Below are positions 3,596 to 18,040 of a DNA stretch of 24,579 nt, in pieces. The notes beneath the pieces are model-generated. The model made no database searches. It saw only the letters and a program-made list of their open reading frames with translations, and was not told the origin of the DNA. The stretch is taken from contig CAZXVG010000001.1 in NCBI GenBank assembly GCA_964644205.1, positions 1 to 24,579 on the forward strand, written 5' to 3'. The position numbers and the translations under genes were made by a program. Position 1 is the first letter of the stretch; each line of letters opens with the position of its first letter. The stretch is from an uncultured Dehalococcoidales bacterium (lineage in GTDB: Bacteria; Chloroflexota; Dehalococcoidia; Dehalococcoidales; UBA5760).

Positions 3596-3660
3596 AGATT
3601 AGTCGATAAATGGTGACAAAGTCATAAAATGCAGGGCGAAAAAATAAAATAGTCGTGACA
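3596..3660 (-). promoter_or_regulatory. 65-bp shared promoter module, copy 1 (hsp20-usp)
   Basis: Minus strand reads TGTCACGACTATTTTATTTTTTCGCCCTGCATTTTATGACTTTGTCACCATTTATCGACTAATCT; -10 TAATCT; aligns without gaps to six other copies. Confidence 0.75.
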
Positions 3661-3706
3661 TATTCCAGGGGGTTTTGTCGGCCGGTCTTTCCGGATGTGA
3701 TATAAA

Positions 3707-3771
3707 TGTTATAAATCTTTTATCTTTTGGGGTTGGATTTTACAACAAATCTACACCCGGTGTGTTAAACT
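3707..3771 (+). promoter_or_regulatory. 65-bp shared promoter module, copy 2 (stand-alone receiver)
   Basis: TGTTATAAATCTTTTATCTTTTGGGGTTGGATTTTACAACAAATCTACACCCGGTGTGTTAAACT; -10 TAAACT; an extra half-site TGTGAT lies 11 bp upstream (3696-3701). Confidence 0.7.
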
Positions 3772-3826
3772 TTCACCTAAATCCTGTTCAGGGTAAGGGT
3801 GGCAGTCTGTTCGTGAGATAGGCGAG

Positions 3827-4177
3827 ATGAAGCAGCGGGTACTGGTAGTTGATGACGACCTGAGGATAGTAAGGTTTATCCGGCTCAAGCTTACCGCCAG
3901 CGGCTATCAGGTGTCTGCGACCACTGATGGAGGGGAGGCGCTGGAACTGGCGCGGGCAGAGCAACCCGATGTCACGGTTCTGGATATCATAATGCCCGGT
4001 ATGGACGGCTTTGAGGTGCTAAGGAAGCTGCGCGCCTTCTGCGACCGGCCGGTGATTGTCATCAGTGCCCGGTCGGAAAACGGCCCGGAAGCCCTTAAGC
4101 TCGGGGCCAGCGATTTCATGTTAAAGCCCTTTGACATTAACGACCTGGTGGCCCGGATTCAAAGAGCGCTGGGCTAG
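3827..4177 (+). CDS. single-domain response regulator (receiver only)
   Basis: VLVVDDD, phospho-acceptor DVTVLDIIMP, ISAR, FMLKPF; stop immediately after the receiver, no output domain. Confidence 0.9.
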   Translation: MKQRVLVVDDDLRIVRFIRLKLTASGYQVSATTDGGEALELARAEQPDVTVLDIIMPGMDGFEVLRKLRAFCDRPVIVISARSENGPEALKLGASDFMLKPFDINDLVARIQRALG

Positions 4178-4183
4178 GGCGAT

Positions 4184-4199
4184 GGGTGGCTGGCTACCC
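4184..4199. terminator. small GC hairpin between convergent receiver and kinase genes
   Basis: GGGTGGC-TG-GCTACCC with one G.U pair; no clear U-tract. Confidence 0.3.
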
Positions 4200-4205
4200 C
4201 CCGGC

Positions 4206-6959
4206 TCAGGCTCGGGGACTCTTTCCCAGGGGGATAGTGAACAGGAAGGTAGTGCCTTCCCCGGGTTTTGATTCCACCCAGATACGGCCGCCGTGAGCCT
4301 CCACCAGCCGCTTGCAGACTACCAGACCCAGGCCGGTCCCCTTGGTTTGGGCCCCTCCCAGCCGGCTGAAGGGCTCGAACAGGCCCTCTTGCTCCTCGGG
4401 CGGTATCCCCGGGCCGTGGTCGCTGACGCCGATGACCACGTTCTTCTTCTCCTGCCGGGCAAAGACCCTGACCTCGCTGCCCTGGGGAGAGAACTTGCAG
4501 GCGTTATCTATGAGGTTATAGAGGGTGCTCTCCAGCCTGACCGGGTCGACAATCACCCGGGGAAATTTATCGGGGATAGCAAGCGAGACCGGGTGTCTCG
4601 GGTGCTGACTGGCCGCCGCCAGCACGGCTTTGCCGGCGATTTCTCTGATGCTGACCGCCTTCTTATTCAGCTTCAGGCGGTCGGCCTGGTATCTCGATAG
4701 CTCTAATAGGTTATTGAGTATCGCGGTCAGCGACTCGGAGCCCCAGACCGCGTCCTCAAGGAGCTGGCGCCTTTCTTCTTGAGGGATTCTATCGTCCATG
4801 GCCGTCCTGATAGCGCCGTTTACCACGGTAAGAGGCGTCCTCAACTCGTGGGAGACGAGGCCGATGAACTCGTCTTTCAGTTGCTCCACCTTCTTGAGCT
4901 CGGTGATGTCCTGCCCCTGAGCGATGGTGGCCAGGGGGGTCCTGCCGTCGGTATCGAAGATTGTTGCCGAGTTCCAGAGGACGGTGCGCACAGAGCCGTT
5001 AACATGCCGAATGGGGACCTCGACGACCTCCCATCGTTCGCCCTCCCTGGTAGTAGAGTCTATCTTCTTCAGCGCCTCATCCAGTTTGTCCGCCGGGATG
5101 AGGATATCGACCTTTTTGCCCAGCACTTCATGGGCGCTGCGTCCCGTGAGCCGCTCGAAGGCGTGGTTAAAGCGGGTAATCTTTAGTTCCGGGTCCCAGA
5201 CGATAATCGGGGCATTGGCATGGGCAAACAGGTTATCCAGATAGTCACGCGTCTGGCGCAGGTTCTCCTCCATCTTCCGGCGCTCGGTGACGTCCTGGGC
5301 GGTGCCGAAGCCGCCTTTAAGCATGCCCTCCTCGTCGAACTCCAGCTCGGCTCTATCGCGCACCCATCTTATCTCATCTCCCACTATGATGCGGTGCTCG
5401 GCGTCGTACTCCTCGCCCTGGAGGGCTGCCTGCCACCTGCTGTCGACGTATTCCCGGTCTTCCGGGTGCACGCAGGAGAGGAACGTCTCGTAGGTCATGG
5501 GCTTACCCCTGGGGATGCCGAAGATACGGTGGGTCTCATCGGACCACAGGAGTTCATTACGCTGGACATCCAGACGCCAGCTGCCGGTTTGAGCCACCGC
5601 CTGAGCACGGTTCAGGTCCTGGTGGGCTTTCTGCAGCTCTGCTTCCGCCTCCTTGCGCTCGGTGATGTCACGATTGGAAGCACGGCGCCCCAGGAGATTG
5701 CCCTCGGCATCCAGAGCCGGTTGGCAGGCATGGCTTATCCAGCGCTCCTGTCCGTCGCGCCGTATTATCCGGAATTCAAGCTCGACCCCTTCCCGGTGGT
5801 GCATGTCTTCCTTCATGTGCGCCCTTACCCGCTGGCGGTCGTCGGGGTGCATTATGCTCAGGTAGAGCTTGGGGTCGCTGACAAACTCGGCGCTGGTATA
5901 TCCCGTGAAGCGTAGGCATGACGGCGAAACATAAAGGAACCGGTCATCCGGGTTGCGCCAGTACTCCCAGTCATAGGCGAACTCGGACACTATCCGGAAC
6001 TTTTCCTCGCTCTTTCTTAACGCCTCCTCCGCCTGCTTACGCTCGGTGATGTCGTTACCGTATATATTTACGTATCCCGCGCTGGTTACGGGAACAAAGT
6101 TCATCATAAATACGCGGTCTTTACCTGCGGCTTCGATTACCCGGGACGAGCCGCTGTCCAGCACCTCGGCGGCTATCTCTCGGTAGCGGCTAGGCAGCAG
6201 TTGCCCCGGCCGGCACTTGAAGGAAGGCAGCTGGGAGCAGACGGTATTGGCGAACAGGATGGAACCGTCCCTATCCACTCTCAGTACGGGACTGGGGTTT
6301 TCCTGGGGGAACCTGGCTAAATCTTCAAGCTGCAGGTTAGCCTGGGCAAGCTTGCTTTGCGCCTGTTTGTAAATAGCACTCTCGATGGTGTCCCACTTGT
6401 CATCCTGCTTGACCAGGGCAAACTGGTGGTTCTTGACCACGTCTATTACGGCGGCGCCGTCGCATTTATCCAGGCAGTAGCTACATATTGCCAGCATCCG
6501 GTATTTTCCGATAACAGCATTTACCTTGGCTTCATACTCGGTGAAGGCCCGCCAGTGATTTCTCCCCAGCCAGAAGGCGTTGCCGCTCAGCCGTAGACCG
6601 GCGTAGCCCCTGGCGAGAGCCTGTTCCAGTTTGCTGAGCCAGCCCTTGAGCACCCGGTCTTCGTTAAAGGTGCCCCCCGCTAGATACCATTCCCGGTAGG
6701 GCGATATCTCGATGCCGCCCTGGCTCAGGTGTTGGTCGAAACCCGGCACCGCTTCTCTCATGGCTTCTTGCGCCTCGGCGACCGTGAGCGGTTCCGAGGT
6801 AACCCACAGGCAGAACTCGTTACTCTCCAGGCCGGCCCGGAAATAGGGGACGAGGATACTAATCAGGTCCTGTTTGGTGCGGTAGAACTGGCAGAAGTGC
6901 GTTCCCCAGGGCACGCTGCCAATCACCTCGATGCCGCTGTATCGCGTTTCGCTTTCCAT
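4206..6959 (-). CDS. soluble sensor histidine kinase: MEDS domain + four PAS domains + HisKA + HATPase_c
   Basis: N-terminal PWGTHFCQFY...GYAGLRLSGN...MLAICSY (MEDS); PAS starts ENPSPVLRVD, YDWEYWRNPD, TGSWRLDV, NAPIIVWD; H-box SHELRTPL, N-box NLIDNACKFS, DHGPGI, LFEPF, GTGLGL; no transmembrane stretch. Confidence 0.92.
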   Translation of the reverse strand: MESETRYSGIEVIGSVPWGTHFCQFYRTKQDLISILVPYFRAGLESNEFCLWVTSEPLTVAEAQEAMREAVPGFDQHLSQGGIEISPYREWYLAGGTFNEDRVLKGWLSKLEQALARGYAGLRLSGNAFWLGRNHWRAFTEYEAKVNAVIGKYRMLAICSYCLDKCDGAAVIDVVKNHQFALVKQDDKWDTIESAIYKQAQSKLAQANLQLEDLARFPQENPSPVLRVDRDGSILFANTVCSQLPSFKCRPGQLLPSRYREIAAEVLDSGSSRVIEAAGKDRVFMMNFVPVTSAGYVNIYGNDITERKQAEEALRKSEEKFRIVSEFAYDWEYWRNPDDRFLYVSPSCLRFTGYTSAEFVSDPKLYLSIMHPDDRQRVRAHMKEDMHHREGVELEFRIIRRDGQERWISHACQPALDAEGNLLGRRASNRDITERKEAEAELQKAHQDLNRAQAVAQTGSWRLDVQRNELLWSDETHRIFGIPRGKPMTYETFLSCVHPEDREYVDSRWQAALQGEEYDAEHRIIVGDEIRWVRDRAELEFDEEGMLKGGFGTAQDVTERRKMEENLRQTRDYLDNLFAHANAPIIVWDPELKITRFNHAFERLTGRSAHEVLGKKVDILIPADKLDEALKKIDSTTREGERWEVVEVPIRHVNGSVRTVLWNSATIFDTDGRTPLATIAQGQDITELKKVEQLKDEFIGLVSHELRTPLTVVNGAIRTAMDDRIPQEERRQLLEDAVWGSESLTAILNNLLELSRYQADRLKLNKKAVSIREIAGKAVLAAASQHPRHPVSLAIPDKFPRVIVDPVRLESTLYNLIDNACKFSPQGSEVRVFARQEKKNVVIGVSDHGPGIPPEEQEGLFEPFSRLGGAQTKGTGLGLVVCKRLVEAHGGRIWVESKPGEGTTFLFTIPLGKSPRA

Positions 6960-7008
6960 AGCGTCTCCCCGGGGTTAGTTTAGGAGAAGCCTCTCTGGCT
7001 TGCATCAC

Positions 7009-7037
7009 ATATTACCATTGCCTCTGCCCGGTTTCAA
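7009..7037 (-). promoter_or_regulatory. canonical sigma70-type promoter of the MEDS kinase
   Basis: TTGAAA (7037-7032) - 17 bp - TAATAT (7014-7009) with a TGn extension, about 50 bp upstream of the ATG. Confidence 0.65.
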
Positions 7038-7070
7038 CTGGCGGCGTTCTGTCGAAGGGCTTTAGTTAAA

Positions 7071-7135
7071 TGTCATGAAAACGTAATAGATTTCAGCTTC
7101 CTTTTATGACTTTGCAACGGGGTATGTCCTAAAGT
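7071..7135 (+). promoter_or_regulatory. 65-bp shared promoter module, copy 3 (gerW operon)
   Basis: TGTCATGAAAACGTAATAGATTTCAGCTTCCTTTTATGACTTTGCAACGGGGTATGTCCTAAAGT; -10 TAAAGT. Confidence 0.78.
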
Positions 7136-7221
7136 AACTGATGACCGGTAGCGTTTGAGCATCCGGTCAGCCGGCCTCTCTAAAGAGGCCGGGCAATATT
7201 TAAATGTCTAAGGAGGACAAC

Positions 7222-7587
7222 ATGGAAGACTTAGCGGCACTGGTAAAGTCCACGGTAGACGAAATCCAGAAGGTAATCTCTTCAGCCTCGATTGTGGAAG
7301 AACCAACGGTCGTCGGGGAGACCACTATTCTCCCTCTGGTGAGCACCGGCTTCTGGTTTGTCGGTGGCGGCGGACACGACAGGTTAACCGAGAAAAAGGT
7401 CAAGGAAGGTGAGAAATACGGTACCGGTGGTGGCGCCGGCATCCGGGCGGTGGCACTGGTAATCATAGATAAAGAGGGAACCAGGGTCGAGCCCATCAGG
7501 GGCCTTGTCTCGGGTACCATCGAGAAGATAGCCGAGAAGGTACCGGAGATGGTTACCGCCTTCCGGGGACAGCAGAAGCAGGGTTAG
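7222..7587 (+). CDS. GerW/YtfJ family protein
   Basis: EPTVVGETTILPLVSTGFWFVGGGG...GTGGGAGIRAVALVII pattern. Start moved from 7204 to ATG 7222, which has AGGAGG 5 nt upstream. Confidence 0.85.
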   Translation: MEDLAALVKSTVDEIQKVISSASIVEEPTVVGETTILPLVSTGFWFVGGGGHDRLTEKKVKEGEKYGTGGGAGIRAVALVIIDKEGTRVEPIRGLVSGTIEKIAEKVPEMVTAFRGQQKQG

Positions 7588-7591
7588 ACGA

Positions 7592-8167
7592 TTGGTTGCC
7601 GGTATCGTAGTTGGCAGTATAGTCGGCGCTATTGCCTTAGTACTGTGTATCCCGTTCTACGGGTCGATTGAGGTAAGGGCTGAGGAAACGTTCGACTTCA
7701 GACTGAGACTGAGGTGGCTGTTCGGCGCCTTCAAGCGGCAGTTTCCCGGCGCGAAGCCGGAGCCGGCGGGGGGCGAAGGCGGTAGGCGCGTCCCCGAGAA
7801 ATACCGTCCCCGGCTCGTGTCTGGGGTGCTTGGCGATAGCGAGGACAGAGCCAGTTTGAATAGGCTAGTGAGCGCCTTGGTTCGCTCCGTCCGGGTGGAG
7901 AGCCTTGAGGCCGATTTCAGGCTGGGGCTCGAAGACCCGGCGGACACGGCGCTTGTCTTCGGGCCCGCCGGAGCCGTCTCAGTGCTCATTAATCTCTATA
8001 CTGACCACAGTATCTGGCTGATTCCCGACATGGAGGGTGAGAGCCTTCAGGGACACCTGAACGCCAGATTTCGCTGGCGGCCGATACGATTGTTTCGCCC
8101 CGTGATGGGTTTCCTTTTCTCCGGGACGGGAAGAAGGATGGCAAAAAGGGCGCTCTTACGAAGATGA
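7592..8167 (+). CDS. DUF2953 (YtfI-like) protein with N-terminal membrane anchor
   Basis: Hydrophobic N-terminus; FRLGLEDPADTALVFG motif typical of DUF2953; adjacent to gerW as in ytfI-ytfJ; TTG start. Confidence 0.75.
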   Translation: MVAGIVVGSIVGAIALVLCIPFYGSIEVRAEETFDFRLRLRWLFGAFKRQFPGAKPEPAGGEGGRRVPEKYRPRLVSGVLGDSEDRASLNRLVSALVRSVRVESLEADFRLGLEDPADTALVFGPAGAVSVLINLYTDHSIWLIPDMEGESLQGHLNARFRWRPIRLFRPVMGFLFSGTGRRMAKRALLRR

Positions 8168-8469
8168 TAAAGCAGGAAAGAATCGTGGTGGAGGTGCCGC
8201 TTAGGAGCCGGGCCGTAACTGTGGTTACGGTAAGCGAGGTTACGGGCGACTATCACTTCGGTGATGACGACGTAAGCTTCTACTGTTTTAAGCGGCCGGT
8301 GGCGGTAGCCGTGGCTACCAGGGAGGGAGTCAGAGCCTTCGATAACGATGGTGAGGAGATGGAGACTGCCGAGTTCATCGGCAGGTTCCCGGATGCCAAA
8401 CCCCTGCTCGAGAAGAGACTGAAATCAAGGCGGAAACCTCAGAAGGACGCCAAGGGAGGAAAGGAGTGA
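8164..8469 (+). CDS. hypothetical protein, probable divergent GerW-like paralog
   Basis: 4-bp ATGA overlap with the upstream stop; KRPVAVAVATREGVRA resembles GerW IRAVALVIIDKEGTRV by eye. Confidence 0.7.
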   Translation: MIKQERIVVEVPLRSRAVTVVTVSEVTGDYHFGDDDVSFYCFKRPVAVAVATREGVRAFDNDGEEMETAEFIGRFPDAKPLLEKRLKSRRKPQKDAKGGKE

Positions 8470-8548
8470 CCCTGGCTGGCTCTCCCGCCCTTTCATTATA
8501 GGGGTGGGATTCCGGTCAGGGTTAATAGCCTGGCCAAACCCAACCAAG

Positions 8549-8590
8549 AACAAGGCGAGTAGTGCTCCACGCTAACTCGCCTTGTTTTGT
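8549..8590. terminator. probable bidirectional intrinsic terminator
   Basis: Perfect 12-bp stem AACAAGGCGAGT (8549-8560) / ACTCGCCTTGTT (8575-8586), 14-nt loop, followed by TTGT; lies between convergent genes. Confidence 0.7.
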
Positions 8591-8622
8591 AACCTTACGC
8601 TTATCCGGTGGCTTGAGTTTAG

Positions 8623-9063
8623 CTATTCCCCTAAAAGGAGCTTCAGTTCCGTGATATGCTCCTGCTCGTCCTGGATTACGTGCCGCACGGTGTGTTCCAG
8701 CTGGAAGTATTCGTACTTGAGCTCGTCACGCATCTCCCGGATCTTGTCCAGTATCCCCAGATAAAAGTCAACGGCGTGCTTTTCGTCGTTAAGATTGACC
8801 TTGAGGATGTTGTTCGTTTCCTTGGCCGGATGGGTTTCCGCGATGCCCATCGACGGTACGCCGCCGAGGTAGGCGCCGATTAGTTCGCGGAACATGTCCT
8901 CGTGGCCTTTCTCGTCGTCGGCAAGCTCCTTCAGCCGGGCGATTATCGGCTCGGCGTTTATCCCGCTGACGCACTCGGCATGAGAGAGGTACTGTATCCG
9001 CGCCGCGTGCTCTAGCTCGAGGGCCTGGTTCATCATCCGAAGTAGTTCATCCTTTTTCGCCAT
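8623..9063 (-). CDS. ferritin-like / bacterioferritin-like diiron protein
   Basis: Four-helix ferroxidase pattern: ALELEHAARIQY, DEKGH, DEKHAVDFY, DEQEH; AAGGAGG RBS. Confidence 0.85.
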   Translation of the reverse strand: MAKKDELLRMMNQALELEHAARIQYLSHAECVSGINAEPIIARLKELADDEKGHEDMFRELIGAYLGGVPSMGIAETHPAKETNNILKVNLNDEKHAVDFYLGILDKIREMRDELKYEYFQLEHTVRHVIQDEQEHITELKLLLGE

Positions 9064-9096
9064 TATATGGTCACCTCCTTTATTTCTGGCACCCCC

Positions 9097-9161
9097 ATTT
9101 TAGGTAAGCGGCTATTGAAAAGTAATAAAATTAGTGGCCAGGAAGTTACAAAAAGATAACA
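9097..9161 (-). promoter_or_regulatory. 65-bp shared promoter module, copy 4 (ferritin-like gene)
   Basis: Minus strand reads TGTTATCTTTTTGTAACTTCCTGGCCACTAATTTTATTACTTTTCAATAGCCGCTTACCTAAAAT; -10 TAAAAT. Confidence 0.78.
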
Positions 9162-9218: not shown

Positions 9219-10133
9219 TCATTTACCCTCCCTCAAATCCCTCAGCCTTTGCTGGGCCCTTTCCAGGGAAGTGGCGCCGCGCCACATACCCTGCCAGGGG
9301 TCTTTTTTCTGAGAGAGGCGGCGGAATATGTTCTTAATGTTGTAGCTCCGGGAGTTAAAATTCGGGGCGGTTACCCCCTCCCAGTCCACGGGGGCCGCTA
9401 CCGGCGCCCCGGGCCTGGCTCTTACCGCGTAGGGCAGTACCGCAGTCTGCCCGTAGCTGTTGCGGAGATAGTCCAGAAAGACCCGCCCCCGCCTTTTGTC
9501 CTTACGCTGTTCGCTGGTTAGCGCCTCGGGTTCCTGCTCCGCTAGTGTCCTGGCTACCTCCTGAGCGAAGCCGTGCACCTCGTCGAAGCCGGCGCTCCCG
9601 TTCAGGGGGACGACCACGTGAAGGCCGCGCGAGCCGGTGGTCTTTACCCGGGGCGCAAGCCCCAGCCCTTCCAGGAGCTTTCTTAGGGAAAGCACCGCCC
9701 ACCGGACGGGCTCAAAGTCATCGTCCGGGGGGTCGAGGTCGAAGACGGCTAGGTCGGGTTGGTCCAGGTGGCCCTTGCGGCTCAGCCAGGCGTGGGGGGT
9801 TATGCAGGCCTGGTTAGCCAGGTAGACCAGGGTGGCCGCATTCTGGCAGGCCACATGGCTAGTGCTGCCGCCCTCCTTTTTCACGGTGATGCGCTCTATC
9901 CAGTCCGGGAAATACTCGGGCGCCTCCTGCTGGTAGAACCCGTTCCCGTTTATGCCGTCAGGGAAGCGGTGCAGGGTGAGGGGTCTATCCTTGACGTAGG
10001 GGAGCATTACCCGGGCAATCCGGCGATAGTAGTCTATCAAATCGCCCTTGGTGAGGCCGCTTTCCGGATAAAAGAGCTTGTCCGTGTTGGATAGCTCTAT
10101 GGTGTGGTGACCGATAGCGAGCTTGTTAGCCAT
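9219..10133 (-). CDS. stand-alone LigD polymerase (primase-polymerase) domain protein
   Basis: LSNTDKLFYP, LTLHRFPDGI, DLAVFDLDP, KTTGSRGLHV, FLDYLRN. Start set at ATG 10133 (MANKL), an 8-bp overlap with the upstream stop. Confidence 0.92.
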   Translation of the reverse strand: MANKLAIGHHTIELSNTDKLFYPESGLTKGDLIDYYRRIARVMLPYVKDRPLTLHRFPDGINGNGFYQQEAPEYFPDWIERITVKKEGGSTSHVACQNAATLVYLANQACITPHAWLSRKGHLDQPDLAVFDLDPPDDDFEPVRWAVLSLRKLLEGLGLAPRVKTTGSRGLHVVVPLNGSAGFDEVHGFAQEVARTLAEQEPEALTSEQRKDKRRGRVFLDYLRNSYGQTAVLPYAVRARPGAPVAAPVDWEGVTAPNFNSRSYNIKNIFRRLSQKKDPWQGMWRGATSLERAQQRLRDLREGK

Positions 10134-10716
10134 GCCCTGACTCCAGCTGCTCAAGGGTTCTTCCGCTGAGGACAGACTTTGGCTCCGTTTTCACCGGGTT
10201 CCGTCTATCGTCCGCCTTTTCATCACGCATCTTGACCAGCAGCCACTTCTTCCTGTCCCCCAGCGCCGTCAGGGCATAGCCGCCCTCCAGCTTCTTCCCC
10301 TTGAGCCAGACGGCGATATGCCCCTTTTTCAGGGCTTCTGCCATCGGGGTTTCCCGGCCCTTTTCTTCTGTCAGGTTGTGGTAGGTGCCGCTGTCCCAGA
10401 CTATCACCTTACCGGCGCCGTACTCCCCTTCCGGTATCATCCCCTCGAAGCCGGCATACTCCAGGGGGTGGTCTTCGGTGCGCATGGCCAGGCGCTTCTC
10501 AGCCGGGTCTGTCGAGGGGCCTTTAGGCACCGCCCAGGAAACGAGTACCCCGCCGATTTCCAGACGGAAATCGTAGTGGAGGCTTGAGGCGTCGTGCTTC
10601 TGGACAACGTATCTCGGCAATTTGGCCGGTTCCGCGCCCTCTTCCCCGGAAGGCTCTGAGGTGCGCCCGAAGTCTCGTTTCCGCCGGTACTCTCTCAAAG
10701 ACCCTTCTTTACTCAT
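10126..10716 (-). CDS. stand-alone LigD 3'-phosphoesterase domain protein
   Basis: LREYRRKRDFGRTSEP, YVVQKHDASSLHYDFRLE, SWAVPKGPS, RTEDHPLEY, YGAGKVIVWDSGTY. Confidence 0.93.
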   Translation of the reverse strand: MSKEGSLREYRRKRDFGRTSEPSGEEGAEPAKLPRYVVQKHDASSLHYDFRLEIGGVLVSWAVPKGPSTDPAEKRLAMRTEDHPLEYAGFEGMIPEGEYGAGKVIVWDSGTYHNLTEEKGRETPMAEALKKGHIAVWLKGKKLEGGYALTALGDRKKWLLVKMRDEKADDRRNPVKTEPKSVLSGRTLEQLESGHG

Positions 10717-10726
10717 ATTTCTCTCC

Positions 10727-11479
10727 TTACGGATTACCCGTCTGGCTGCCTCCCAGCATTTCTTTTAGCTTCAGGGCGTTCTCGGCGGCATATCCCTTTT
10801 CATCGTTGTCAAAGTAGCAGTATACCTCTTTCCCTTCGCCGGCCCAGTTGGAAAACGACTCCGCCCAGTCTGTGAGCGCTTCCTGGCCATAGCTTCCGGT
10901 ATAGGCGCCGTCCGGGCCGTGCAGCCTGACATAGACGAAGTCGCTGGTTACCGAACGCGGCGACTGTCTTCCCTCGAAGTCGTATATGCAGAAGGCGGCG
11001 CCCCTTTCGGCCAGGGCGTCTTCGGTCTGCTTACCGAACCAGCTCGGGTTACGGAACTCGAAGGCGTATCTACGACCCTGGGGCAGGGCCCTGAGGAAGC
11101 CCTCCAGCCTCTCGATGTTTGGTTTCCAGTGCGGCGGCAGCTGAAACAGGATTGGCCCCAGTTTATCCCCCAGCGTGGCTACCCGCTCCCCGAGGTTGGC
11201 CAGCGGCTCTGCCGGGTCCTTGAGCTTTTTCATATGGGTCATATAGCGGCTGGCCTTGACGGAGAACCGGAAGCCCTCCGGCACCGAGTCCCGCCACCTG
11301 GCGAAGGTCTCCTTCTCCGGCAGCCGATAGAAGGTGTTGTTGATTTCCGCGGTCTGGAAGTGCTGCGCATAGTATTCCAGCATGCGGCTGTCGGGCAGTT
11401 CTCGGGGGTAGAAGGGGCCCTTCCAGTGCTGGTAGTGCCACCCGGACGTCCCGATGTGTATCGATTTCGGTTCTCTCAA
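10727..11479 (-). CDS. DUF72 (YecE/YunF-like) TIM-barrel protein
   Basis: IHIGTSGWHY, EINNTFY, FSVKASRYMTH, LFQLPP, AFEFRNPSW, YVRLHG, YCYFDND; TTG start. Confidence 0.92.
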   Translation of the reverse strand: MREPKSIHIGTSGWHYQHWKGPFYPRELPDSRMLEYYAQHFQTAEINNTFYRLPEKETFARWRDSVPEGFRFSVKASRYMTHMKKLKDPAEPLANLGERVATLGDKLGPILFQLPPHWKPNIERLEGFLRALPQGRRYAFEFRNPSWFGKQTEDALAERGAAFCIYDFEGRQSPRSVTSDFVYVRLHGPDGAYTGSYGQEALTDWAESFSNWAGEGKEVYCYFDNDEKGYAAENALKLKEMLGGSQTGNP

Positions 11480-11543: not shown

Positions 11544-11608
11544 ATTCAACATCCTTTCCCGTGTAAAAATCATAAAATCGGGCCCTTGAATCTGACATTT
11601 GTGTAACA
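11544..11608 (-). promoter_or_regulatory. 65-bp shared promoter module, copy 5 (DUF72-LigD operon)
   Basis: Minus strand reads TGTTACACAAATGTCAGATTCAAGGGCCCGATTTTATGATTTTTACACGGGAAAGGATGTTGAAT; half-sites conserved, -10 weaker (TTGAAT). Confidence 0.62.
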
Positions 11609-11637: not shown

Positions 11638-11702
11638 TGTCATGGTTTTGTAAGTTTTTGCCCCGCGGTTTTATGACTTTTTGATGCCGTCGGGTGTAGA
11701 TT
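11638..11702 (+). promoter_or_regulatory. 65-bp shared promoter module, copy 6 (Lrp-domain/HesB-like/usp operon)
   Basis: TGTCATGGTTTTGTAAGTTTTTGCCCCGCGGTTTTATGACTTTTTGATGCCGTCGGGTGTAGATT; -10 TAGATT. Confidence 0.78.
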
Positions 11703-11742: not shown

Positions 11743-12030
11743 ATGCTGTCCAAGGCTTTTGTCCTCATTGAGACGGAGAGGGGTAAGGCTAGAGAGATTA
11801 ACCGGTTGCTGCGCAGGTTCAAGGAGATAATGTCAACCGACCTGGTGACGAACCCCTATGATATAATAGCGCTTGTCGAGGGAAGGACGGAGAAACAGCT
11901 TGAGGACTTTGTCAGTCAGGAACTGCGCTCGATTGACGGTATTACCCGGATGGTATTTTGCGAGGTAGTGCCGGCGGTGAGTCAAACGATGAGCCAAAGA
12001 GGGGTATCTAGGAGCCCGCTTTTGCTCTGA
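11743..12030 (+). CDS. Lrp/AsnC ligand-binding (RAM) domain-only protein
   Basis: KAFVLIETERG...LVTNPYDIIALVE...IDGITR; no HTH. Start moved to ATG 11743 with AGGAGG RBS. Confidence 0.85.
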   Translation: MLSKAFVLIETERGKAREINRLLRRFKEIMSTDLVTNPYDIIALVEGRTEKQLEDFVSQELRSIDGITRMVFCEVVPAVSQTMSQRGVSRSPLLL

Positions 12031-12083
12031 AGATACCATCGACCCGCGAAGTTCGTAGGGAATAAAGCCGGGAGGTCTGGCCA

Positions 12084-12371
12084 ATGATTAACTTGAGTGA
12101 CGATGTAAGATGGCTTCTAAAGGACGGGCGTGGGGAGTACTGCGCTAGCGAAGAAATATGTTTCCGGCTCATGCCGCCCACAGGCGGAAGGGTTACCCTT
12201 ATGCTGGACGTGCCGGAGGACGATGATGTCGTCGTGGAAGACGGCGGTGTTATCTTGCTTCTCGTGGGGCGTGGCGTCGCCTCAACCCTGGAGGGGACGA
12301 CCCTGGGTATCCAAGAGACCGAAGCTGGGCCGAGGCTGGTTATAAATCAGCCGTCGGCGGTGCTGGTGTAG
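12084..12371 (+). CDS. HesB/IscA-like fold hypothetical protein
   Basis: Pattern CFRL...LMLDVPEDDDVVVEDGGVILLLVG...LEGTTLG...GPRLVI resembles HesB-like small proteins; GGAGG upstream; lacks the canonical C-terminal CGC. Confidence 0.55.
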   Translation: MINLSDDVRWLLKDGRGEYCASEEICFRLMPPTGGRVTLMLDVPEDDDVVVEDGGVILLLVGRGVASTLEGTTLGIQETEAGPRLVINQPSAVLV

Positions 12372-12374
12372 CTA

Positions 12375-12818
12375 ATGTTTAAAAAGATTCTGGCGTGCCT
12401 GGATGGTTCCAAACTGGCGGAGCAAATCTTGCCTTATGCTGGAGAGCAGGCCTTACGCTTTGAAAGCCAGCTCGTCCTCCTGCATGTACTAGCCCCGACG
12501 GATTTGCCCCCCGCTGCGGGGATAGGGGTCGGAGAGCTCATGAGAAAACAGGCTCAGGCGGAAGCAAAGTTCAAGACTTACCTTGAGCAACTGGCGGAGA
12601 GATTGCTCCGGGAGTATGATTTGCGGGTGGAGAGCGCCGTCGAAAGGGGAACTGTGGGGGAGACTGTTATCAATTACGCCACCCGGAATAGCGTTGAACT
12701 CATTGTGATTGCCACTCACGGCGAGGGCGGGCTGAAAAGGTTATTATTCGGAAGCGTCGTCGATTCTGTGCTGCGAAACTCTGATATACCCGTGCTGGTG
12801 ATTAGACCCGCTGCTTAG
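12375..12818 (+). CDS. universal stress protein (UspA family)
   Basis: MFKKILACLDGS, LIVIATHGEGG...GSVVDSVLRNS. Confidence 0.92.
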   Translation: MFKKILACLDGSKLAEQILPYAGEQALRFESQLVLLHVLAPTDLPPAAGIGVGELMRKQAQAEAKFKTYLEQLAERLLREYDLRVESAVERGTVGETVINYATRNSVELIVIATHGEGGLKRLLFGSVVDSVLRNSDIPVLVIRPAA

Positions 12819-12972
12819 CCTTTTTGTCGCCGCCCCGGCCTTCTATTCTACTCTCTTTGCCTTCAAGCACCTTTTAGGTTTTGAAGAAGCCCCCTATTTC
12901 CGCTGGCCAGTGTTTCTGGGCTTGAGGAATGTCATCTATCCCATCAAATCCGGGTTCGGCAACCGGTACTGC

Positions 12973-15900
12973 TCACTCCCCGAGGTCGAATTGCAGCGTC
13001 TCCCCCGGCGCTAGCTCAAAGGTATCGTCTCCGAAGCCGACGGTTATCGGGGCCAGGGCATAACGCCGTGTGCTTACCGTGAGACGATTCTGGGTGATGA
13101 GCAGGTTTATCCAGTGCTTACGGTAGAGAATGTCAAACCGTAGCTCCTTTAAGTCGCTGGGCAGGGATGGGTTAAGCTGCAGCCGGTCCTGGCGGGCTTC
13201 GATTCCGGCATAACAGCGCTGAACCAGGTCAACGGTGCCCGCCATGGCCCCGAGGTGAATCCCTTCGGGGGTGGTGCCTCCCTGGGTGTCGGAGACGTCG
13301 CTCTCCAGGGCTTCCTGGAACAGGTGCCAGGAAAGCTCGCGCTCCGAGCGGGCCAATACCCAGGCGTGAACCACCCGGCTTAGGGTAGACCCGTGAGAGG
13401 TGCGTTTCAGGTAGTATTCGATGTTCCGGGGGATGGTCTCGTGTTCGAAAGGGTAGTCGAGACGCCGGAATATCTCCCCCAGCTCGTCGGCGGAGAGGAG
13501 ATAGAAGAGCATGAGCACATCGGCCTGTTTGGAGAGTTTATAGCGGTTGGGGGTGTCCCCCTCCGCTTCGAGGATGCGGTCCAGCCGCTGGACGTCCCCG
13601 TACTTTTTCTGGTAGCCCTCCCAGTTAAACTCTGCAAGCTGCTCATAGCCCTCGAACTGGCTGATGATTCCGTCGCCGTGAAAGACGACCCGCATCTTGC
13701 GGCTGATGTCTTCCCAGTGCTCCACCTCATCCCGCCTCAGAGCGAGCTTGTCCCACAGCGCCTCGCGGCGGTCGCCGGGAAGAAGCTCGATTGTCTCCAG
13801 GGCGCGGCACAACACCCAGACGGCCATGATATTGGTGTAGGCGTTGTTATTGATTCCCGGCTCGGCGGAATCGGGATAGGCGTCGTGAAACTCGTCGGGG
13901 CCCATGACGTTATGAATCTCGTAGCGGCCCAGGGAGCGGTTGTAGCGGGCGATACTTGCCCAGAAACGGGCAATCTCGATGAGCATCTCCGCTCCGTAGA
14001 AGGAGAGGAAGTTGATGTCGCCGGTAACCTGGTAGTAGAGCCACACATTGTAGGCGATGGCCAGGTTGATATGGCGCTGCAACTGGGAGTTATCCGCTAT
14101 CCAGCGCCCGGAGCACGGGTTCAGGTGCAGCTTCTGGCTCTCCTCGCGGCCGTTGCTGCCGCTCTGCCAGGGATACATGGCTCCCTGGTAGCCGGCTTGC
14201 CTGGCTGCCCACTGGGCCTCGGGAAGCCGGCGGTAGCGGTACATCAGCAGGGCGCGGGTAATATCTGGAATCCTGAAATTGAGGAAGGGGAAGATAAATA
14301 GCTCGTCCCAGAGGACATGCCCCCGGTAGGCTTCCCCGTGCAGACCCCGGGGCGGGACGCCGGCGTCCACCTCGATGGTGTGCGGTGACACGGTCTGCAG
14401 CAGGTGGAAGATGTGCAGATTGAGGATAAGCGCCACGCGTTCGCTGTCCTTGATGGCGATGTGACTGCGCCGCCACAGGAGGTCCCAGCTCAGGACGTGC
14501 TGCTTGAGCAAATCGTCAAAGCCCGGGGCGTGCCTAAGCTGCTGACACGACTCGATGACGCTTTCCGAGATGGCATGGTCTCGGGAGGTATAGAGGGCGA
14601 TAATCTTCTCGATGGTGGCCTCTTTCCCCTCCTTAAGCTCAAGGGAAAACTCCTGGGCAATGTAGCCCGGTTCTGCTATTACCCGGGGCTTTAGGGAGAG
14701 CCGCTCACCGCCGCAGAACAGCCTGGTTCGTGCCGCCTCGGCGATAAGGATATGCGACTGGTTCGTCTCCATGTGGAGGTAGACCGTTTCCTGGTCAACC
14801 GATTTGGTGCTCACGGGACTAAGGTGGCGGTTTTCTAGCTGCCGGTAGCGCGCCACCCCGCTGTTGGTCACCCGTCCGTCAAGGGCCGAGCTGACGGAGA
14901 TGCGTCCCCCCCAGTTCTCGGGGACGATGGTTGTTTCCAGTCCGGCCAGGTGGGGACTGGCCATGCTGACAAAGCGGCGCTGGAATATCCGTGTTCGGCG
15001 CCCCTTCTCGTCGGCAAAGCGAATCAGTCGGCTGAGTACGCCCTGGCGTATGTTTAGCTCCTGACGGTATTCCAGGAGGTTTGCCTGCTCGACGCTAAAC
15101 CAGTCCCCGTCCTGGAAGCGGAGGTTAACGGGTAGCCAGTTGGGCAGGTTCACCAGGCTCTCGTTCTCGATGGTCTGTCCCTTGACCTCGGTCTTAAGGC
15201 GGTTGTAACAGCCGGCGGCGTAGCTCCCCGGATAGTGGACGCCGTCGGCGCTGGCTTCCGGGGCGGCGCCCCGGGTGGCAAAATAGCCGTTTCCCAGCGT
15301 GCACAGCGCCTCCCGCAGCCCTTCCTCTTCGGGGGCAAAGTTATCATAGGCTATCACCCAGGTGCCCCGGGCGGTCTCCTTTTCGGCCCTCGCCAGAAGC
15401 TCCTCCAGGAACGCCCTGACCTCTTCCGGGCTGCGTAGCGCATAGTGAGCGCTTGTCTTACGATTGCCCCCGCCGACCACGATAGAGATGCCCCGGTCAC
15501 CAATGGCGCCAAAGGCGTCTTCGTCAGTAGTGTCGTCGCCGATGTATACCGGCAGGACCCGTCTCCCGTCGGCGTGTAGCGCCTCGATAAGGTGCATTAG
15601 GGCCTTGCCCTTGTCCCAGTCGATATCCGGTCTCAGTTCCAAGACCTTCTTACCGGCGGACTTCCGTAGTTCCGGGTAGTGTCGGGCTACCTCGTCGAAC
15701 TGCTGCCGCAGCACGTCCAGGTCGGCGGTCTTAACCTGACGGTAGTGGACGGCGATGGCAAAGCGCTTGCGCTCCACCCAGGCTCTGGCTACCTTTAGCC
15801 TCTCGCGTAGCTCCGCCTCCGCCTTGTCCAGCGTGGCCAGGAAGGGTTTACCCACCTCCTGGTCCCGGTACCGTCCCTCCGGGCCGGCGATGTCGAAGCC

Positions 15901-16941
15901 GTGACTGCCGGCGTAGGCAATGTCGCTGATGCCGACCATGTTCTGCACGTCACCGAGGTCGCGGCCGCTGACGATGGCTACCGAGTAATGGTCAGCTAGC
16001 CTTCTGATTACCCGCCTGGTTTCCTCGGGGAGGATGGCCTGGGCGGGCCGGGCGACAATCGGCGTCAGCGTGCCGTCGTAATCGAGAAAGATGACCGGCG
16101 TGTGCTCCCGCAGCCGCTTTAGTATCGCCTCCTTTTTCTCCAGGGCGGAATCAAGGCTCCTTATCGCCCTTGGCCTGTCGGATTTACGGGGCCCGGCCTT
16201 TCCCGTTGCCAGCTCGGATAAATCCCGCACCACGATATCGGCGCCCCGTTTCTTCATCTCTCTAGCCTGACACGTCCGGTCCACCCCGATAACCAGCCCA
16301 AACCCGCCGCGGCGGCCGGCCTCGACGCCGGCCAGCGAGTCCTCCACGATGGCCGTCTTATCGGGGCTCGCGCCGAGGCGCCGGCAGGCTTCGAGGAAGA
16401 TGGCCGGGTCGGGTTTACCCTTCAGCTTGAGCCTGGCGGAATCGACACCGTCCACCTTGACTTCGAAGAGCTCACTGGCCCCGGCTGCCGCGAGCACGGC
16501 CTCGGCGTTACGGCTGGCCGAGATGATTGCGGTATGGATGCCCCTCTTTTTCAGGTTTTTGACTAGTCTGACAGAGGACGGGTAGGCCCGTCCCCCCTCC
16601 TTCTGGAGCCGTTCCAGGAAGTACCGGTTCTTCCGGTTGCCGAGCCCGCAGACGGTATCCCGGTCCGGGCCGTCACCCGGCTTTCCGCGGGGTAGCGAGA
16701 TACCCCGTGAGTCTAAGAAGCCCTTCACCCCGTCGTAGCGCGGCTTACCGTCTACGTAGCGGCGGTAGTCGGTCTCGGCGTCGAATGGCTGAAAGCCCCG
16801 CTCGCCGCCCTGTGCGGCGCGCCGCTTGAGGTAGTCGTCGAACATCTGCTTCCAGGCGGCGGCGTGGATACCGGCGGTGTCGGTTATCACCCCGTCCATA
16901 TCGAAGATTACCGCCTCTATATTCTTAAGGCTAAACCCCAT
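12973..16941 (-). CDS. three-domain fusion: beta-phosphoglucomutase-like HAD + trehalose-6-phosphate phosphatase + GH65 phosphorylase (OtsB1/Rv2006-like architecture)
   Basis: IFDMDGVITDTA, GKPDPAIF, VEDSLAGV (beta-PGM-like); FLDYDGTLTPI, VSGR, KGKA, GDDTTDEDAF (T6PP); LCTLGNGYFATRG, GEAYRGHVLWD, GPDEFH, KQADV, GIHLGAMAG (GH65). Confidence 0.92.
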   Translation of the reverse strand: MGFSLKNIEAVIFDMDGVITDTAGIHAAAWKQMFDDYLKRRAAQGGERGFQPFDAETDYRRYVDGKPRYDGVKGFLDSRGISLPRGKPGDGPDRDTVCGLGNRKNRYFLERLQKEGGRAYPSSVRLVKNLKKRGIHTAIISASRNAEAVLAAAGASELFEVKVDGVDSARLKLKGKPDPAIFLEACRRLGASPDKTAIVEDSLAGVEAGRRGGFGLVIGVDRTCQAREMKKRGADIVVRDLSELATGKAGPRKSDRPRAIRSLDSALEKKEAILKRLREHTPVIFLDYDGTLTPIVARPAQAILPEETRRVIRRLADHYSVAIVSGRDLGDVQNMVGISDIAYAGSHGFDIAGPEGRYRDQEVGKPFLATLDKAEAELRERLKVARAWVERKRFAIAVHYRQVKTADLDVLRQQFDEVARHYPELRKSAGKKVLELRPDIDWDKGKALMHLIEALHADGRRVLPVYIGDDTTDEDAFGAIGDRGISIVVGGGNRKTSAHYALRSPEEVRAFLEELLARAEKETARGTWVIAYDNFAPEEEGLREALCTLGNGYFATRGAAPEASADGVHYPGSYAAGCYNRLKTEVKGQTIENESLVNLPNWLPVNLRFQDGDWFSVEQANLLEYRQELNIRQGVLSRLIRFADEKGRRTRIFQRRFVSMASPHLAGLETTIVPENWGGRISVSSALDGRVTNSGVARYRQLENRHLSPVSTKSVDQETVYLHMETNQSHILIAEAARTRLFCGGERLSLKPRVIAEPGYIAQEFSLELKEGKEATIEKIIALYTSRDHAISESVIESCQQLRHAPGFDDLLKQHVLSWDLLWRRSHIAIKDSERVALILNLHIFHLLQTVSPHTIEVDAGVPPRGLHGEAYRGHVLWDELFIFPFLNFRIPDITRALLMYRYRRLPEAQWAARQAGYQGAMYPWQSGSNGREESQKLHLNPCSGRWIADNSQLQRHINLAIAYNVWLYYQVTGDINFLSFYGAEMLIEIARFWASIARYNRSLGRYEIHNVMGPDEFHDAYPDSAEPGINNNAYTNIMAVWVLCRALETIELLPGDRREALWDKLALRRDEVEHWEDISRKMRVVFHGDGIISQFEGYEQLAEFNWEGYQKKYGDVQRLDRILEAEGDTPNRYKLSKQADVLMLFYLLSADELGEIFRRLDYPFEHETIPRNIEYYLKRTSHGSTLSRVVHAWVLARSERELSWHLFQEALESDVSDTQGGTTPEGIHLGAMAGTVDLVQRCYAGIEARQDRLQLNPSLPSDLKELRFDILYRKHWINLLITQNRLTVSTRRYALAPITVGFGDDTFELAPGETLQFDLGE

Positions 16942-16987
16942 GCCGCCTTTCTCCCGTTACCCGGATAGGCCCCATCCAGTTAGGTCT

Positions 16988-16996
16988 AGTCTACCA
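16988..16996 (-). promoter_or_regulatory. extended -10 (TGGTAGACT) upstream of the trehalose fusion gene
   Basis: TGn-TAGACT about 47 bp upstream of the ATG; no recognisable -35 and no copy of the shared module. Confidence 0.4.
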
Positions 16997-17235
16997 CATT
17001 TTGGGGCTTGCTTTTAGCCAAAGAGGCGGTGTCAGTCACGCTGGTACCGAGAAGCCTGGCTAACGCTTCCCGGGTATTGAAGGCGTCGTGGGTGGTGACG
17101 ATGGCTCTTGCCTGGTGAACCGGCGTATGCCCGGCGAACAGGGTCTCTAGACTCCGTCCCCTGGTAATAGCTCCGCCTCATCTCCGGTTCCCGGCCCTTC
17201 CGGGGGCCCATCGAGCCCGGCGGCTTACCCTGCCG

Positions 17236-17655
17236 TTAGCTAGCCGGTTCTATCGTTACCGTGAATATCTGGTCTTTGAGCGGTGCGCCCCCGCCGACCA
17301 GTTGGTAGGAAATCGTCACCTCTGTCTCCCCGGGCTGAAGCGCCTGGAAGCGGGCCAGACTGACCACAGACGGGCCAACCAGTGGGCAATAGCCGGGAGC
17401 AATGGAGCAGGCGCTTTCCCCCGATACGCAGGTAGCACACACCGTCTCCTTCAGCTCGAGCAGGGTCTCATCGTAGTGCTGCTCCCAGGTGGTGGGGTCG
17501 GAACAGGCGAGTTCCACGGCTATATTGAACTCCTGCCCTGCCTCTACGGTAACGGGGATGCTCGGGTCCGTGTAAGTATTTATAGTGCCTCCCGCACAGC
17601 CGACCAGTGGCCAGATGCCGACCAGGGCCGCTAACAGTAAAAGTGGTTTCCTCAT
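17236..17655 (-). CDS. lipoprotein with chagasin/I42-like Ig fold and Cys-rich insert
   Basis: Signal peptide with lipobox LVGC; VTVEAGQEFNIAV...DPTTW...RFQALQPGETEVTISY...FTVTI follows the I42 pattern; GGAGG RBS. Confidence 0.7.
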   Translation of the reverse strand: MRKPLLLLAALVGIWPLVGCAGGTINTYTDPSIPVTVEAGQEFNIAVELACSDPTTWEQHYDETLLELKETVCATCVSGESACSIAPGYCPLVGPSVVSLARFQALQPGETEVTISYQLVGGGAPLKDQIFTVTIEPAS

Positions 17656-17667
17656 TCTTGGTCCTCC

Positions 17668-17695
17668 ATATTTACTACAATATATTTACTACAAT
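17668..17695. repeat. perfect 14-bp tandem duplication (ATATTTACTACAAT x2)
   Basis: 17668-17681 equals 17682-17695, abutting the GGAGG RBS of the lipoprotein gene. Confidence 0.9.
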
Positions 17696-17725
17696 AGAGT
17701 AAGCAGCCAATATCTCGGAGTGCTC

Positions 17726-17911
17726 TTAGGTCTTTTTGACTGCCGCCTTCACCTTCCTGGTCATCTCCGGAGACTTTAGCTGTTCCTCGGTGAGTCCGTG
17801 AGACTCTCTGCCGTGCTGTTTTGCCTTCTCGATTACCTCCTGTTCGGTATCACCCTCGGCGACAAACGGGCAATGAAATCCTACCTGGCTACAGGCGAAC
17901 TTGTAGGGCAT
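17726..17911 (-). CDS. DUF1059 small putative metal-binding protein
   Basis: FACSQVGFHC (CxxxGxxC), AEGDTEQEV, HGRESH (HxxxxH); AAGGAGG RBS. Confidence 0.88.
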   Translation of the reverse strand: MPYKFACSQVGFHCPFVAEGDTEQEVIEKAKQHGRESHGLTEEQLKSPEMTRKVKAAVKKT

Positions 17912-17975
17912 GTTTCCCTCCTTGGCTGTTTATTCGGTGCGATTTGCGCTCCCAGGTCGTTAAAGACCTAAATCG

Positions 17976-18040
17976 AATCTACTATAAGAACGATAAAAAA
18001 GTCATAAACTTGGCCGTGAAATAGTTACAAACTTGTAACA
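17976..18040 (-). promoter_or_regulatory. 65-bp shared promoter module, copy 7 (DUF1059-lipoprotein)
   Basis: Minus strand reads TGTTACAAGTTTGTAACTATTTCACGGCCAAGTTTATGACTTTTTTATCGTTCTTATAGTAGATT; -10 TAGATT. Confidence 0.78.

Follow-up and report, generated by a model that had tools for sequence, protein, structure and literature searches.

The window analysed here is a stretch of 24,579 bp from an uncultured Dehalococcoidales bacterium (contig CAZXVG010000001.1, positions 1 to 24,579 of the forward strand), with a GC content of 58.6% and AT-rich intergenic regions. It encodes, among others, Hsp20, universal stress proteins (Usp), a ferritin/Dps-like protein, a split LigD, a trehalose-phosphatase/GH65 fusion, and a PAS-type histidine kinase next to a receiver-only response regulator. 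Between these genes lie seven 65-bp segments that align without gaps, at the coordinates and on the strands given in an earlier note made from the sequence alone, which read them as copies of one promoter module (Table 1). Mapping this module across related genomes, we found that it recurs throughout the class Dehalococcoidia in a rigid geometry, upstream of stress-protection genes and next to one particular orthogroup of response regulators. We consider it likely, from these sequence comparisons, that the modules are activator-dependent promoters bound by the phosphorylated form of this 232-aa OmpR/PhoB-family regulator and that they drive a stress-protection regulon.

All the columns that had been listed as invariant hold in the seven copies, namely, TGTYAY at columns 1-6, T14, A16, TTTA at 33-36, A39, AY at 47-48, T60, and T65, with A61 present in six of the seven. 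A pattern composed of these invariants only, through column 48, matches the window exactly seven times and has no match in 100 dinucleotide-preserving shuffles. In leave-one-out scoring, every held-out copy takes seventh place among about 49,000 positions on both strands with 18-47 bits, while the eighth-best window position has -2.5 to -9 bits, i.e., 21-56 bits lower. Taken singly, both blocks recover the seven copies, the distal one (columns -3 to 18) with one copy at rank 8 and the proximal one (columns 31 to 49) with one at rank 43, and the spacers between the blocks score no better than background in the leave-one-out test. The module reaches 3 nt farther upstream than the earlier note said, with A.A preceding the TGT. 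As had been proposed, each copy faces a gene: all seven point to an open reading frame (ORF) with an AAGGAGG-type Shine-Dalgarno sequence, and column 65 is separated from the start codon by 33-68 nt when the copy 6 gene is taken to start at ATG 11743, which has AAGGAGG before it, and not at TTG 11713. Copies 5 and 6 are divergent and 29 bp apart, and copy 2 has the weakest proximal element of the seven (TTTTACAAC). An Rfam search of the window gave no match.

The closest homologues of the DUF72 protein encoded downstream of copy 5 belong to metagenome-assembled genomes (MAGs) of Dehalococcoidia and Chloroflexota; an exact-protein look-up of the window DUF72 itself gave no match. At one of these loci (L004, 74% identical DUF72), three modules with identical spacing lie upstream of three different genes, the DUF72 orthologue among them. 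Loci L001 to L003 (76% and 71% identical DUF72) have no module, and their DUF72 genes lie inside long operons without intergenic space. The L001 array (1-20738) is one long co-directional run with almost no intergenic space and no module in 20 kb, comprising glycolysis genes, Usp, PolX, NAD-ligase, DUF72, Fpg, PPDK, PFOR, and ADP-forming acetyl-CoA synthetase.

A pattern that 7 of the 10 sites from the window and L004 meet was then used to scan a collection holding one genome per GTDB species, and it returned at least 119 loci. Among the matches listed, about 73 are Dehalococcoidia, Dehalococcoidales, or Chloroflexi MAGs, and the other 46 reach at most 15 bits with the full matrix, L118 being the one exception (an unclassified MAG, but of the same type). 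L118 excepted, these other-phylum loci are chance matches of the pattern to AT-rich DNA, and among the matches listed the module was not found outside Dehalococcoidia/Chloroflexota-type MAGs. At least 122 sites in the Chloroflexota loci score above 8 bits, including many that fall outside the scan pattern, and one MAG has 12 modules over six blocks; so many modules per MAG indicate a regulon and not a local peculiarity. Conversely, a matrix built from more than 100 sites of the relatives finds exactly the seven copies in the window. The consensus over the relatives is AAATGTCATAgTTTTGTAAC TTTT -(C-rich)- ATTTTATGACTTyTyCAY -N11- TAnnAT, and many of its conserved positions lie outside the scan pattern (A-3, A-2, A7, T10-T12, G13, T14, A15, T19-T22, A31, T41, T42, T44, T60, A61, A64, and T65). 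The module is thus class-wide and not particular to the genome of the window. Columns 23-30 between the two blocks (e.g., window 11660-11667) are not conserved in sequence yet are C-rich on the promoter strand (C 38-49%, G 16-34%), which may reflect a DNA-shape requirement.

Hexamers of the form T-K-T-n-A-Y occupy columns 1-6, 12-17, 32-37, and 43-48, followed by a -10 element at columns 60-65. The relatives bear out the proposed division into two pairs of half-sites with an 11-bp period, 31 bp apart: a matrix of half-site 1 from more than 100 sites has its best direct self-matches at +31, +11, and +42, and A5, A16, A36, and A47, the fifth position of each hexamer, are each at least 98% conserved. 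Positional conservation in relatives, which the earlier note had suggested checking, is strong, with the proximal element at exactly the canonical offset in 107 of 112 strong distal hits and the -10 at its canonical place in 89 of 100 sites and one base closer (-1) in 10. The proximal pair does occupy the -35 position, as claimed, ending at column 48, 11 bp before the TAnnAT of columns 60-65, and the -35 itself is degenerate (ATGACT). By comparison, the gene of the candidate regulator has a near-consensus promoter of its own, TTGACA-17-TATnAT, in four to five of the five loci that were fetched by regulator orthologues alone. Since the consensus of these organisms is therefore the canonical TTGACA, ATGACT is a poor -35, and a simple sigma-70 scan of the window did not call the module promoters. 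A weak -35 combined with a good -10 and with sites in register with that -10 is the signature of an activator that contacts RNA polymerase, such as PhoB at Pho boxes. Because the module combines all three, we propose that it is an activator-dependent promoter.

Other promoter types were considered and rejected. An alternative-sigma promoter is at odds with the ordinary TAnnAT -10, and sigma-factor genes are not enriched near modules, with one extracytoplasmic function (ECF) gene in the motif-selected set of 74 loci of about 8 kb taken from the collection scan. An archaeal promoter with a TFB recognition element (BRE) and a TATA box, prompted by the TTTTAT box, the MEDS domain, and the PFOR genes, does not agree with the AAGGAGG Shine-Dalgarno sites, GlpX, HD-GYP, and the Dehalococcoidia homologues. 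A forespore or SigB-type promoter, prompted by YtfJ and LigD, fails on hexamer spacing, the TAnnAT -10, and the Chloroflexota lineage.

One orthogroup of 232-aa response regulators with REC and Trans_reg_C domains is found in 19 of the 74 motif-selected loci, and a module is adjacent in all 19, lying 1-80 nt past the stop codon of the regulator gene on the same strand in 17 of them. If there is one such gene per genome of about 2 Mb, some 0.3 of 74 random 8-kb blocks would be expected to carry it. The association also holds in the reverse direction. All five independent loci fetched by regulator orthologues alone (77-80% identity to the query) show a module 45-105 nt past the stop codon, with scores of 63, 9.5, 73, 70, and 72 bits. 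The control set of 80 loci (609 kb) around other OmpR-family regulators, gathered by a metagenome scan with a regulator alignment and generic receiver-domain peptides and consisting mostly of non-orthologous OmpR regulators, has no module and a best score of -13 bits. Two relatives at 67-73% identity (L125 and L126) are uninformative, one ending at a contig edge and the other lying in a different context. The recognition helix hardly varies within the orthogroup and reads D-x-Q-x-L-R-T-(W)-x-S-R-(L)-R-x-K. At E ≤ 1e-60, the regulator has more than 3,000 matches among database proteins, nearly all of the matches listed having 232 aa, and it falls below every named equivalog cut-off (RpaB, 206/330; MtrA, 189/300; PhoB, 165/296; KdpE, 161/325 bits). 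The idea of one OmpR/PhoB-type winged-helix activator is thereby supported by a reciprocal genomic association with a specific orthogroup to which other OmpR regulators are not linked, and this orthogroup is the putative binder of the module. Nor is the activator encoded in the window, just as the earlier note had it: the scanned ORFs and a six-frame search for CRP-like proteins show no DNA-binding regulator there.

The regulator gene has a conserved promoter without a module, cTTTGACAc-N17-TATCAT/TATTAT (L205 9624-10000, L208 9812-10000, L209 9834-10000, and L210 9934-10000), and the intergenic regions between kinase and regulator genes contain neither a module nor a lone half-site pair. A near-consensus promoter of its own and the lack of a module suggest that the regulator gene is constitutively expressed and not autoregulated.

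In relatives, a homologous PAS kinase sits upstream of and divergent from the module-linked regulator, as does a MEDS-PAS kinase in L208. By BLASTP, the window kinase is 42-62% identical over its full length to the kinases of L035 and L117 and 40-57% identical over large C-terminal parts to those of L113, L027, L074, L115, L105, and L038. It is the probable sensor of the system and would pair with the regulator. The input domains of these kinases differ by locus, being MEDS-PAS, MASE3-PAS-GAF, GAF-PAS, or none. The receiver-only protein is 50-54% identical by BLASTP to the receiver domain of module-linked OmpR-type regulators; its gene is convergent with the kinase gene in the window, and the same pair is found in L074, L027, L115, L017, and L208. 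It is probably a phosphate sink or feedback element. A sigma-70-like promoter with an extended TG, TTGAAA-17-TAATAT at 7009-7037 on the minus strand, is well placed for the kinase gene and independent of the module. On the Dehalococcoidia contig L208, a heliorhodopsin gene (4332-5108) lies about 5 kb from the kinase/regulator pair.

The genes behind modules across loci encode DJ-1/PfpI, Usp, Hsp20, ferritin, rubrerythrin, DUF1059, nucleoside diphosphate (NDP)-sugar transferases, DUF488, and short-chain dehydrogenases, together with flavin reductases, metallo-beta-lactamase/ODP proteins, cupredoxins, ribonucleotide reductase, and CRP-type regulators. DJ-1/PfpI is the commonest gene directly after the regulator, and superoxide dismutase, glutaredoxin, and thioredoxin-reductase-like genes lie farther along the same strand, in the arrays after the regulator-adjacent module. 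That the targets are not phosphate genes holds for the window and its relatives, where no pst, pho, or phosphatase families occur among them. Protection and survival genes make up the target set, with a strong leaning towards oxidative stress, and a guess at the signal would be oxygen, redox, or energy stress. The CRP-like proteins among the targets include stand-alone CRP-type helix-turn-helix (HTH) proteins of 84-101 aa without cyclic nucleotide-binding or dimerisation domains (L027 3533-3787, L074 2997-3260, L115 6129-6392, L107 1051-1356, and L009 992-1291), whose genes are typically first after the regulator-adjacent module. They have a recognition helix (D-W-G-x-V-H-M) that does not resemble the CRP or FNR helix, and no NCBIfam model matches them.

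Table 1. Modules, the genes they are predicted to drive, and signalling genes in the window (module scores from the matrix of the relatives)
Feature	Coordinates	Strand	Score or evidence	Content or predicted target
Module copy 1	3596..3660	-	56 bits	Hsp20 and Usp genes
Module copy 2	3707..3771	+	39 bits	Receiver-only response regulator gene
Module copy 3	7071..7135	+	35 bits	ytfJ-like operon
Module copy 4	9097..9161	-	50 bits	Ferritin-like gene
Module copy 5	11544..11608	-	29 bits	DUF72/split-LigD operon
Module copy 6	11638..11702	+	65 bits	Closest to class consensus
Module copy 7	17976..18040	-	52 bits	DUF1059 and downstream genes
Copy 1 target operon	2527..3539	-	Pfam	Hsp20 (3045-3539), universal stress protein (2527-2994)
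Receiver-only response regulator, 116 aa	3827..4177	+	Pfam, BLASTP	Module-driven (copy 2)
Histidine kinase, 917 aa	4206..6959	-	Pfam, BLASTP	MEDS, three PAS, HisKA/HATPase
Copy 3 target operon	7204..8469	+	Pfam	YtfJ/GerW-like (7204-7587), DUF2953-like (7592-8167), hypothetical 101-aa protein (8164-8469)
Copy 4 target	8623..9063	-	Pfam	Ferritin/Dps-like protein
Copy 5 target operon	9219..11479	-	Pfam	DUF72 (10727-11479), LigD 3'-phosphoesterase (10126-10716), LigD primase-polymerase (9219-10154)
Copy 6 target operon	11743..12818	+	Pfam	Small Lrp/AsnC ligand-domain protein (probable start 11743, end 12030), hypothetical 95-aa protein (12084-12371), Usp (12375-12818)
Copy 7 target unit	12973..17911	-	Pfam	DUF1059 (17726-17911), I42-like (17236-17655), 1322-aa HAD/trehalose-phosphatase/GH65 fusion (12973-16941)

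Several of the window targets recur behind modules elsewhere. Hsp20 and Usp are module targets in relatives too, ferritin genes belong to operons driven by a module in L205 and L210, L205 has a DUF1059-ferritin operon of this sort, and small AsnC-ligand-domain genes come after modules in L071 and L208. The fusion protein of copy 7 is a single 1322-aa ORF that joins a HAD/beta-phosphoglucomutase-like part, a trehalose-phosphatase, and a complete GH65 phosphorylase; it probably belongs to the copy 7 unit, with co-transcription continuing over a gap of 294 nt. A 1366-aa equivalent of the fusion is encoded near LigD_N on another Dehalococcoidia contig. The two LigD genes of the window, for the phosphoesterase and the primase-polymerase, overlap by 29 nt and both lie behind DUF72, and the window has neither a ligase domain nor a Ku gene. 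The leader between copy 3 and the start of the ytfJ-like gene (7142-7193, plus strand) has a predicted fold (-33 kcal/mol, z = -4.6) with two strong hairpins, of which the second is a GC-rich stem with an A/U-rich stretch behind it, and this structure may act as an attenuator or stabiliser. Elsewhere in the window, a second signalling cluster without a module (21196-24535, minus strand) encodes a PAS kinase, a receiver-only protein, a REC-HD-GYP protein, and a further receiver protein. At 18805-18915, the called 5' ends of the divergent rhomboid (minus strand) and class-II aldolase (plus strand) ORFs overlap by about 110 nt; at least one of these starts is probably mis-called, since the aldolase homologue aligns only from residue 18.

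Based on these observations, we propose the following model. A PAS-type soluble histidine kinase, in the window the MEDS-PAS kinase, would phosphorylate an unnamed Dehalococcoidia-specific regulator encoded beyond the window, and one phosphorylated dimer would bind each pair of half-sites. With transcription predicted to start about 7 nt after the -10, the pairs would lie at about -71 to -55 and -40 to -24, so that the two dimers, 31 bp apart, would sit on the same face of the DNA with the proximal one standing in for the -35. The promoters would be read by the housekeeping sigma factor in need of the activator, with RNA polymerase recruited as by PhoB at Pho boxes, and the module-driven receiver-only protein would drain or relay phosphate as (negative) feedback. 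The output would be the joint induction of Hsp20, Usp, ferritin, rubrerythrin, DJ-1/PfpI, DUF1059, non-homologous end-joining (NHEJ) enzymes, trehalose and NDP-sugar enzymes, and secondary CRP-type regulators. On a wider view, for which we see about equal grounds for belief and disbelief, Dehalococcoidia run their general stress or survival response with a single two-component system dedicated to it, in place of an alternative sigma factor. Such a system would consist of a constitutive OmpR-family regulator, kinases with interchangeable sensors (MEDS, PAS, GAF, and MASE3), and the receiver-only feedback protein. It would act through a rigid promoter of about 60 bits with four half-sites, on which two dimers three helical turns apart replace the -35, and a second tier would be formed by CRP-type proteins, including the stand-alone CRP HTH domains of 85-100 aa.

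Several points weigh against the proposed mode of promoter activation by this regulator. The assignment of the regulator rests on gene neighbourhood, and the regulator is assumed to be present in this genome outside the window of 24.6 kb. In most cases the module comes after the regulator gene and not before it, so that no autoregulation is visible and one classic line of evidence is lost. Motif-first loci were chosen by a pattern of fixed spacing, so their apparent rigidity is inflated, though about 45 sites not chosen by the pattern agree with the rigid spacing. The half-site is nearly self-complementary (GTnAC), with inverted matches at +35, +12, and -1, and because of this quasi-palindromic character, direct and inverted orientations look alike in the sequence. 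In addition, the third half-site could be either TTTTAT (32-37) or TATGAC (35-40). Finally, HTH_Crp_2 is the commonest family among the first genes after modules (7 of 96), and CRP-like genes occur in 12 of the 74 loci.

This abundance of CRP-like genes is also an argument for a binder of the CRP/FNR family, which would read the distal GTYAY-N6-GTAAC with its AAA/TTT flanks as a 5-6-5 palindrome near -62.5, in a class I arrangement, and leave the proximal TTTTATGACTT as a T-tract plus -35. The left half, AAATGTCAT, is one base off the E. coli CRP consensus half, AAATGTGAT, and complementarity about column 9.5 extends to 8 of 12 position pairs. Nevertheless, we regard a CRP-type binder as very unlikely. 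The CRP-like genes lie downstream of modules in the manner of targets, which makes their products targets and not the likely binder, and their products fall into two unrelated classes, full-length proteins and the HTH-only proteins of 84-101 aa with a quite different recognition helix. The two halves differ (C4 versus A15 and T6 versus G13), and this asymmetry is conserved over more than 100 sites. Columns 7 and 10-12, which would be spacer, show some of the strongest conservation of all, unlike in CRP sites. An equally conserved proximal pair and columns 44-48 would be left unexplained, and a CRP-like gene is present in one of the five regulator-first loci, compared with a module in all five. 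Somewhat more can be said for a division of labour in which the OmpR-type regulator binds the distal pair only, and the proximal TTTTATGAC...YCAY is read by a dedicated sigma factor, by the alpha C-terminal domain with sigma region 4, or by the HTH-only CRP-type proteins. The -35-like TGAC lies 18 bp from the -10 with a T-tract at the position of a proximal UP subsite, the hexamers differ systematically (distal TGT-type and proximal TTT/YTY-type), and a C-rich spacer of 14 bp parts the two pairs. This division is nonetheless unlikely in our judgement, given the scarcity of sigma-factor genes and the ordinary -10 described above, the best direct self-match of half-site 1 (+31), which falls inside the proximal block, and the matching conservation of A5, A16, A36, and A47 at equivalent hexamer positions. 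The end of the proximal pair 11 bp before the -10 also fits the Pho-box arrangement.

If the regulator were instead a repressor, its proximal pair over the -35 would block RNA polymerase until release, and the overlap of the site with the -35 region agrees with such a role. Moreover, RpaB provides an OmpR-family example of repression from promoter-proximal sites (PMC6525291). Repression is highly improbable here, since it could do without a fixed register and without a distal pair, whereas both pairs are rigidly phased with the -10 over more than 100 promoters, and the -35 is degenerate in organisms whose consensus is TTGACA. As for a chance likeness, which AT-rich intergenic regions in a genome of 58.6% GC might seem to invite, or copies of a repeat or mobile element, we consider the probability negligible. 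Both are already refuted: shuffled sequence yields no match, held-out copies stand far above all other positions, the two blocks are recovered independently, and conservation is limited to specific columns with unconstrained spacers, which is the signature of a protein-binding site. The same module, moreover, precedes different genes in many species. Binding of the module by the phosphorylated OmpR/PhoB-family regulator, as an activator, is therefore the explanation we favour.

The Dehalococcoidia, strict anaerobes, form an abundant class that is mostly uncultured, and to our knowledge almost nothing has been reported about their global regulation beyond the regulators of reductive dehalogenase genes. 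In the literature collection searched by full text, neither the motif nor the regulator nor the regulon is described, and a class-wide stress-protection regulon appears to be undescribed so far. The module, together with the candidate regulator and sensor, provides a direct computational handle on a stress regulon in thousands of MAGs, covering oxygen and redox defence, DNA end-joining repair, compatible solutes, and chaperones. If one dedicated two-component system for stress does exist, the whole regulon could be read directly from any MAG of the class. The module would also offer a well-populated example of a PhoB-like replacement of the -35 with two non-contiguous dimer sites, and it flags the stand-alone CRP-type HTH proteins as regulated targets.

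Compared to known systems, the module resembles the Pho box of E. coli and other Proteobacteria. Both have tandem half-sites with an 11-bp period, direct in the Pho box and read as direct in the module, and the module half-site TGTCAT(A) is identical to the heptamer core of the Pho box. In both, the proximal site takes the place of a weak -35, leaving about 10-11 bp to the -10, and both systems would use a two-component OmpR-family activator with a PAS-type kinase. In contrast to PhoB, the regulator reaches 165 bits with TIGR02154 (cut-off, 296), its recognition helix differs at most base-contacting positions, its targets lack pst, pho, or phosphatase genes, its own gene is not autoregulated by a module, and the two pairs of the module are not contiguous but separated by the 14-bp C-rich spacer. 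The closest solved structure is that of KdpE (4KFC/4KNY, the best PDB match, E 5e-44 over the full length), with which the regulator shares the recognition-helix pattern xLRxYxxxLRxKLE, and automated annotations name many members of the orthogroup "KdpE". The kdp operator has T-rich half-sites ending in AC, resembling TTTTRTRAC of the module. However, the regulator has 161 bits with the KdpE model NF007820 (cut-off, 325), no kdp genes are found among the annotated neighbours, the kinase is a soluble PAS or MEDS kinase and not KdpD, and there are many targets and not one operon.

The best NCBIfam hit of the regulator is RpaB of cyanobacteria (NF045944), at 206 bits and short of the cut-off of 330. 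What the two would share is a global role for an OmpR-family protein, at more than 100 target promoters, and targets linked to stress and redox. On the other strand, the repeats of the module read GTTACAAA and ATGACATT, close to the HLR1 motif, (G/T)TTACA(T/A)(T/A), which consists of 8-nt repeats with 2 nt between them (PMC6525291). HLR1 differs in having a 10-bp period, one pair, and variable positions (-51 when activating and near +1 when repressing), whereas the module has an 11-bp period, two pairs, and a fixed register. On these grounds, the system is neither the Pho regulon nor KdpDE nor RpaB/HLR1. The likeness to CRP class I promoters lies in the 22-bp distal block with AAA/TTT flanks, a left half one base off consensus, and a centre near -62, and it is set against conserved asymmetry and central bases, an obligatory second block, and a linked regulator of OmpR type. 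In content, the regulon recalls those of DosR of mycobacteria, SigB, and RpoS, with Usp, alpha-crystallin-type Hsp20, ferritin-like proteins, carbohydrate reserve enzymes, and PAS/GAF-type kinase input. This is a functional analogy only, since DosR, of the NarL/LuxR type, binds a 20-bp palindrome and the other two are sigma factors. Thus, the module probably defines a two-component OmpR/PhoB-type regulon that is unusual in its rigid, information-rich composite promoter and in its class-wide distribution.

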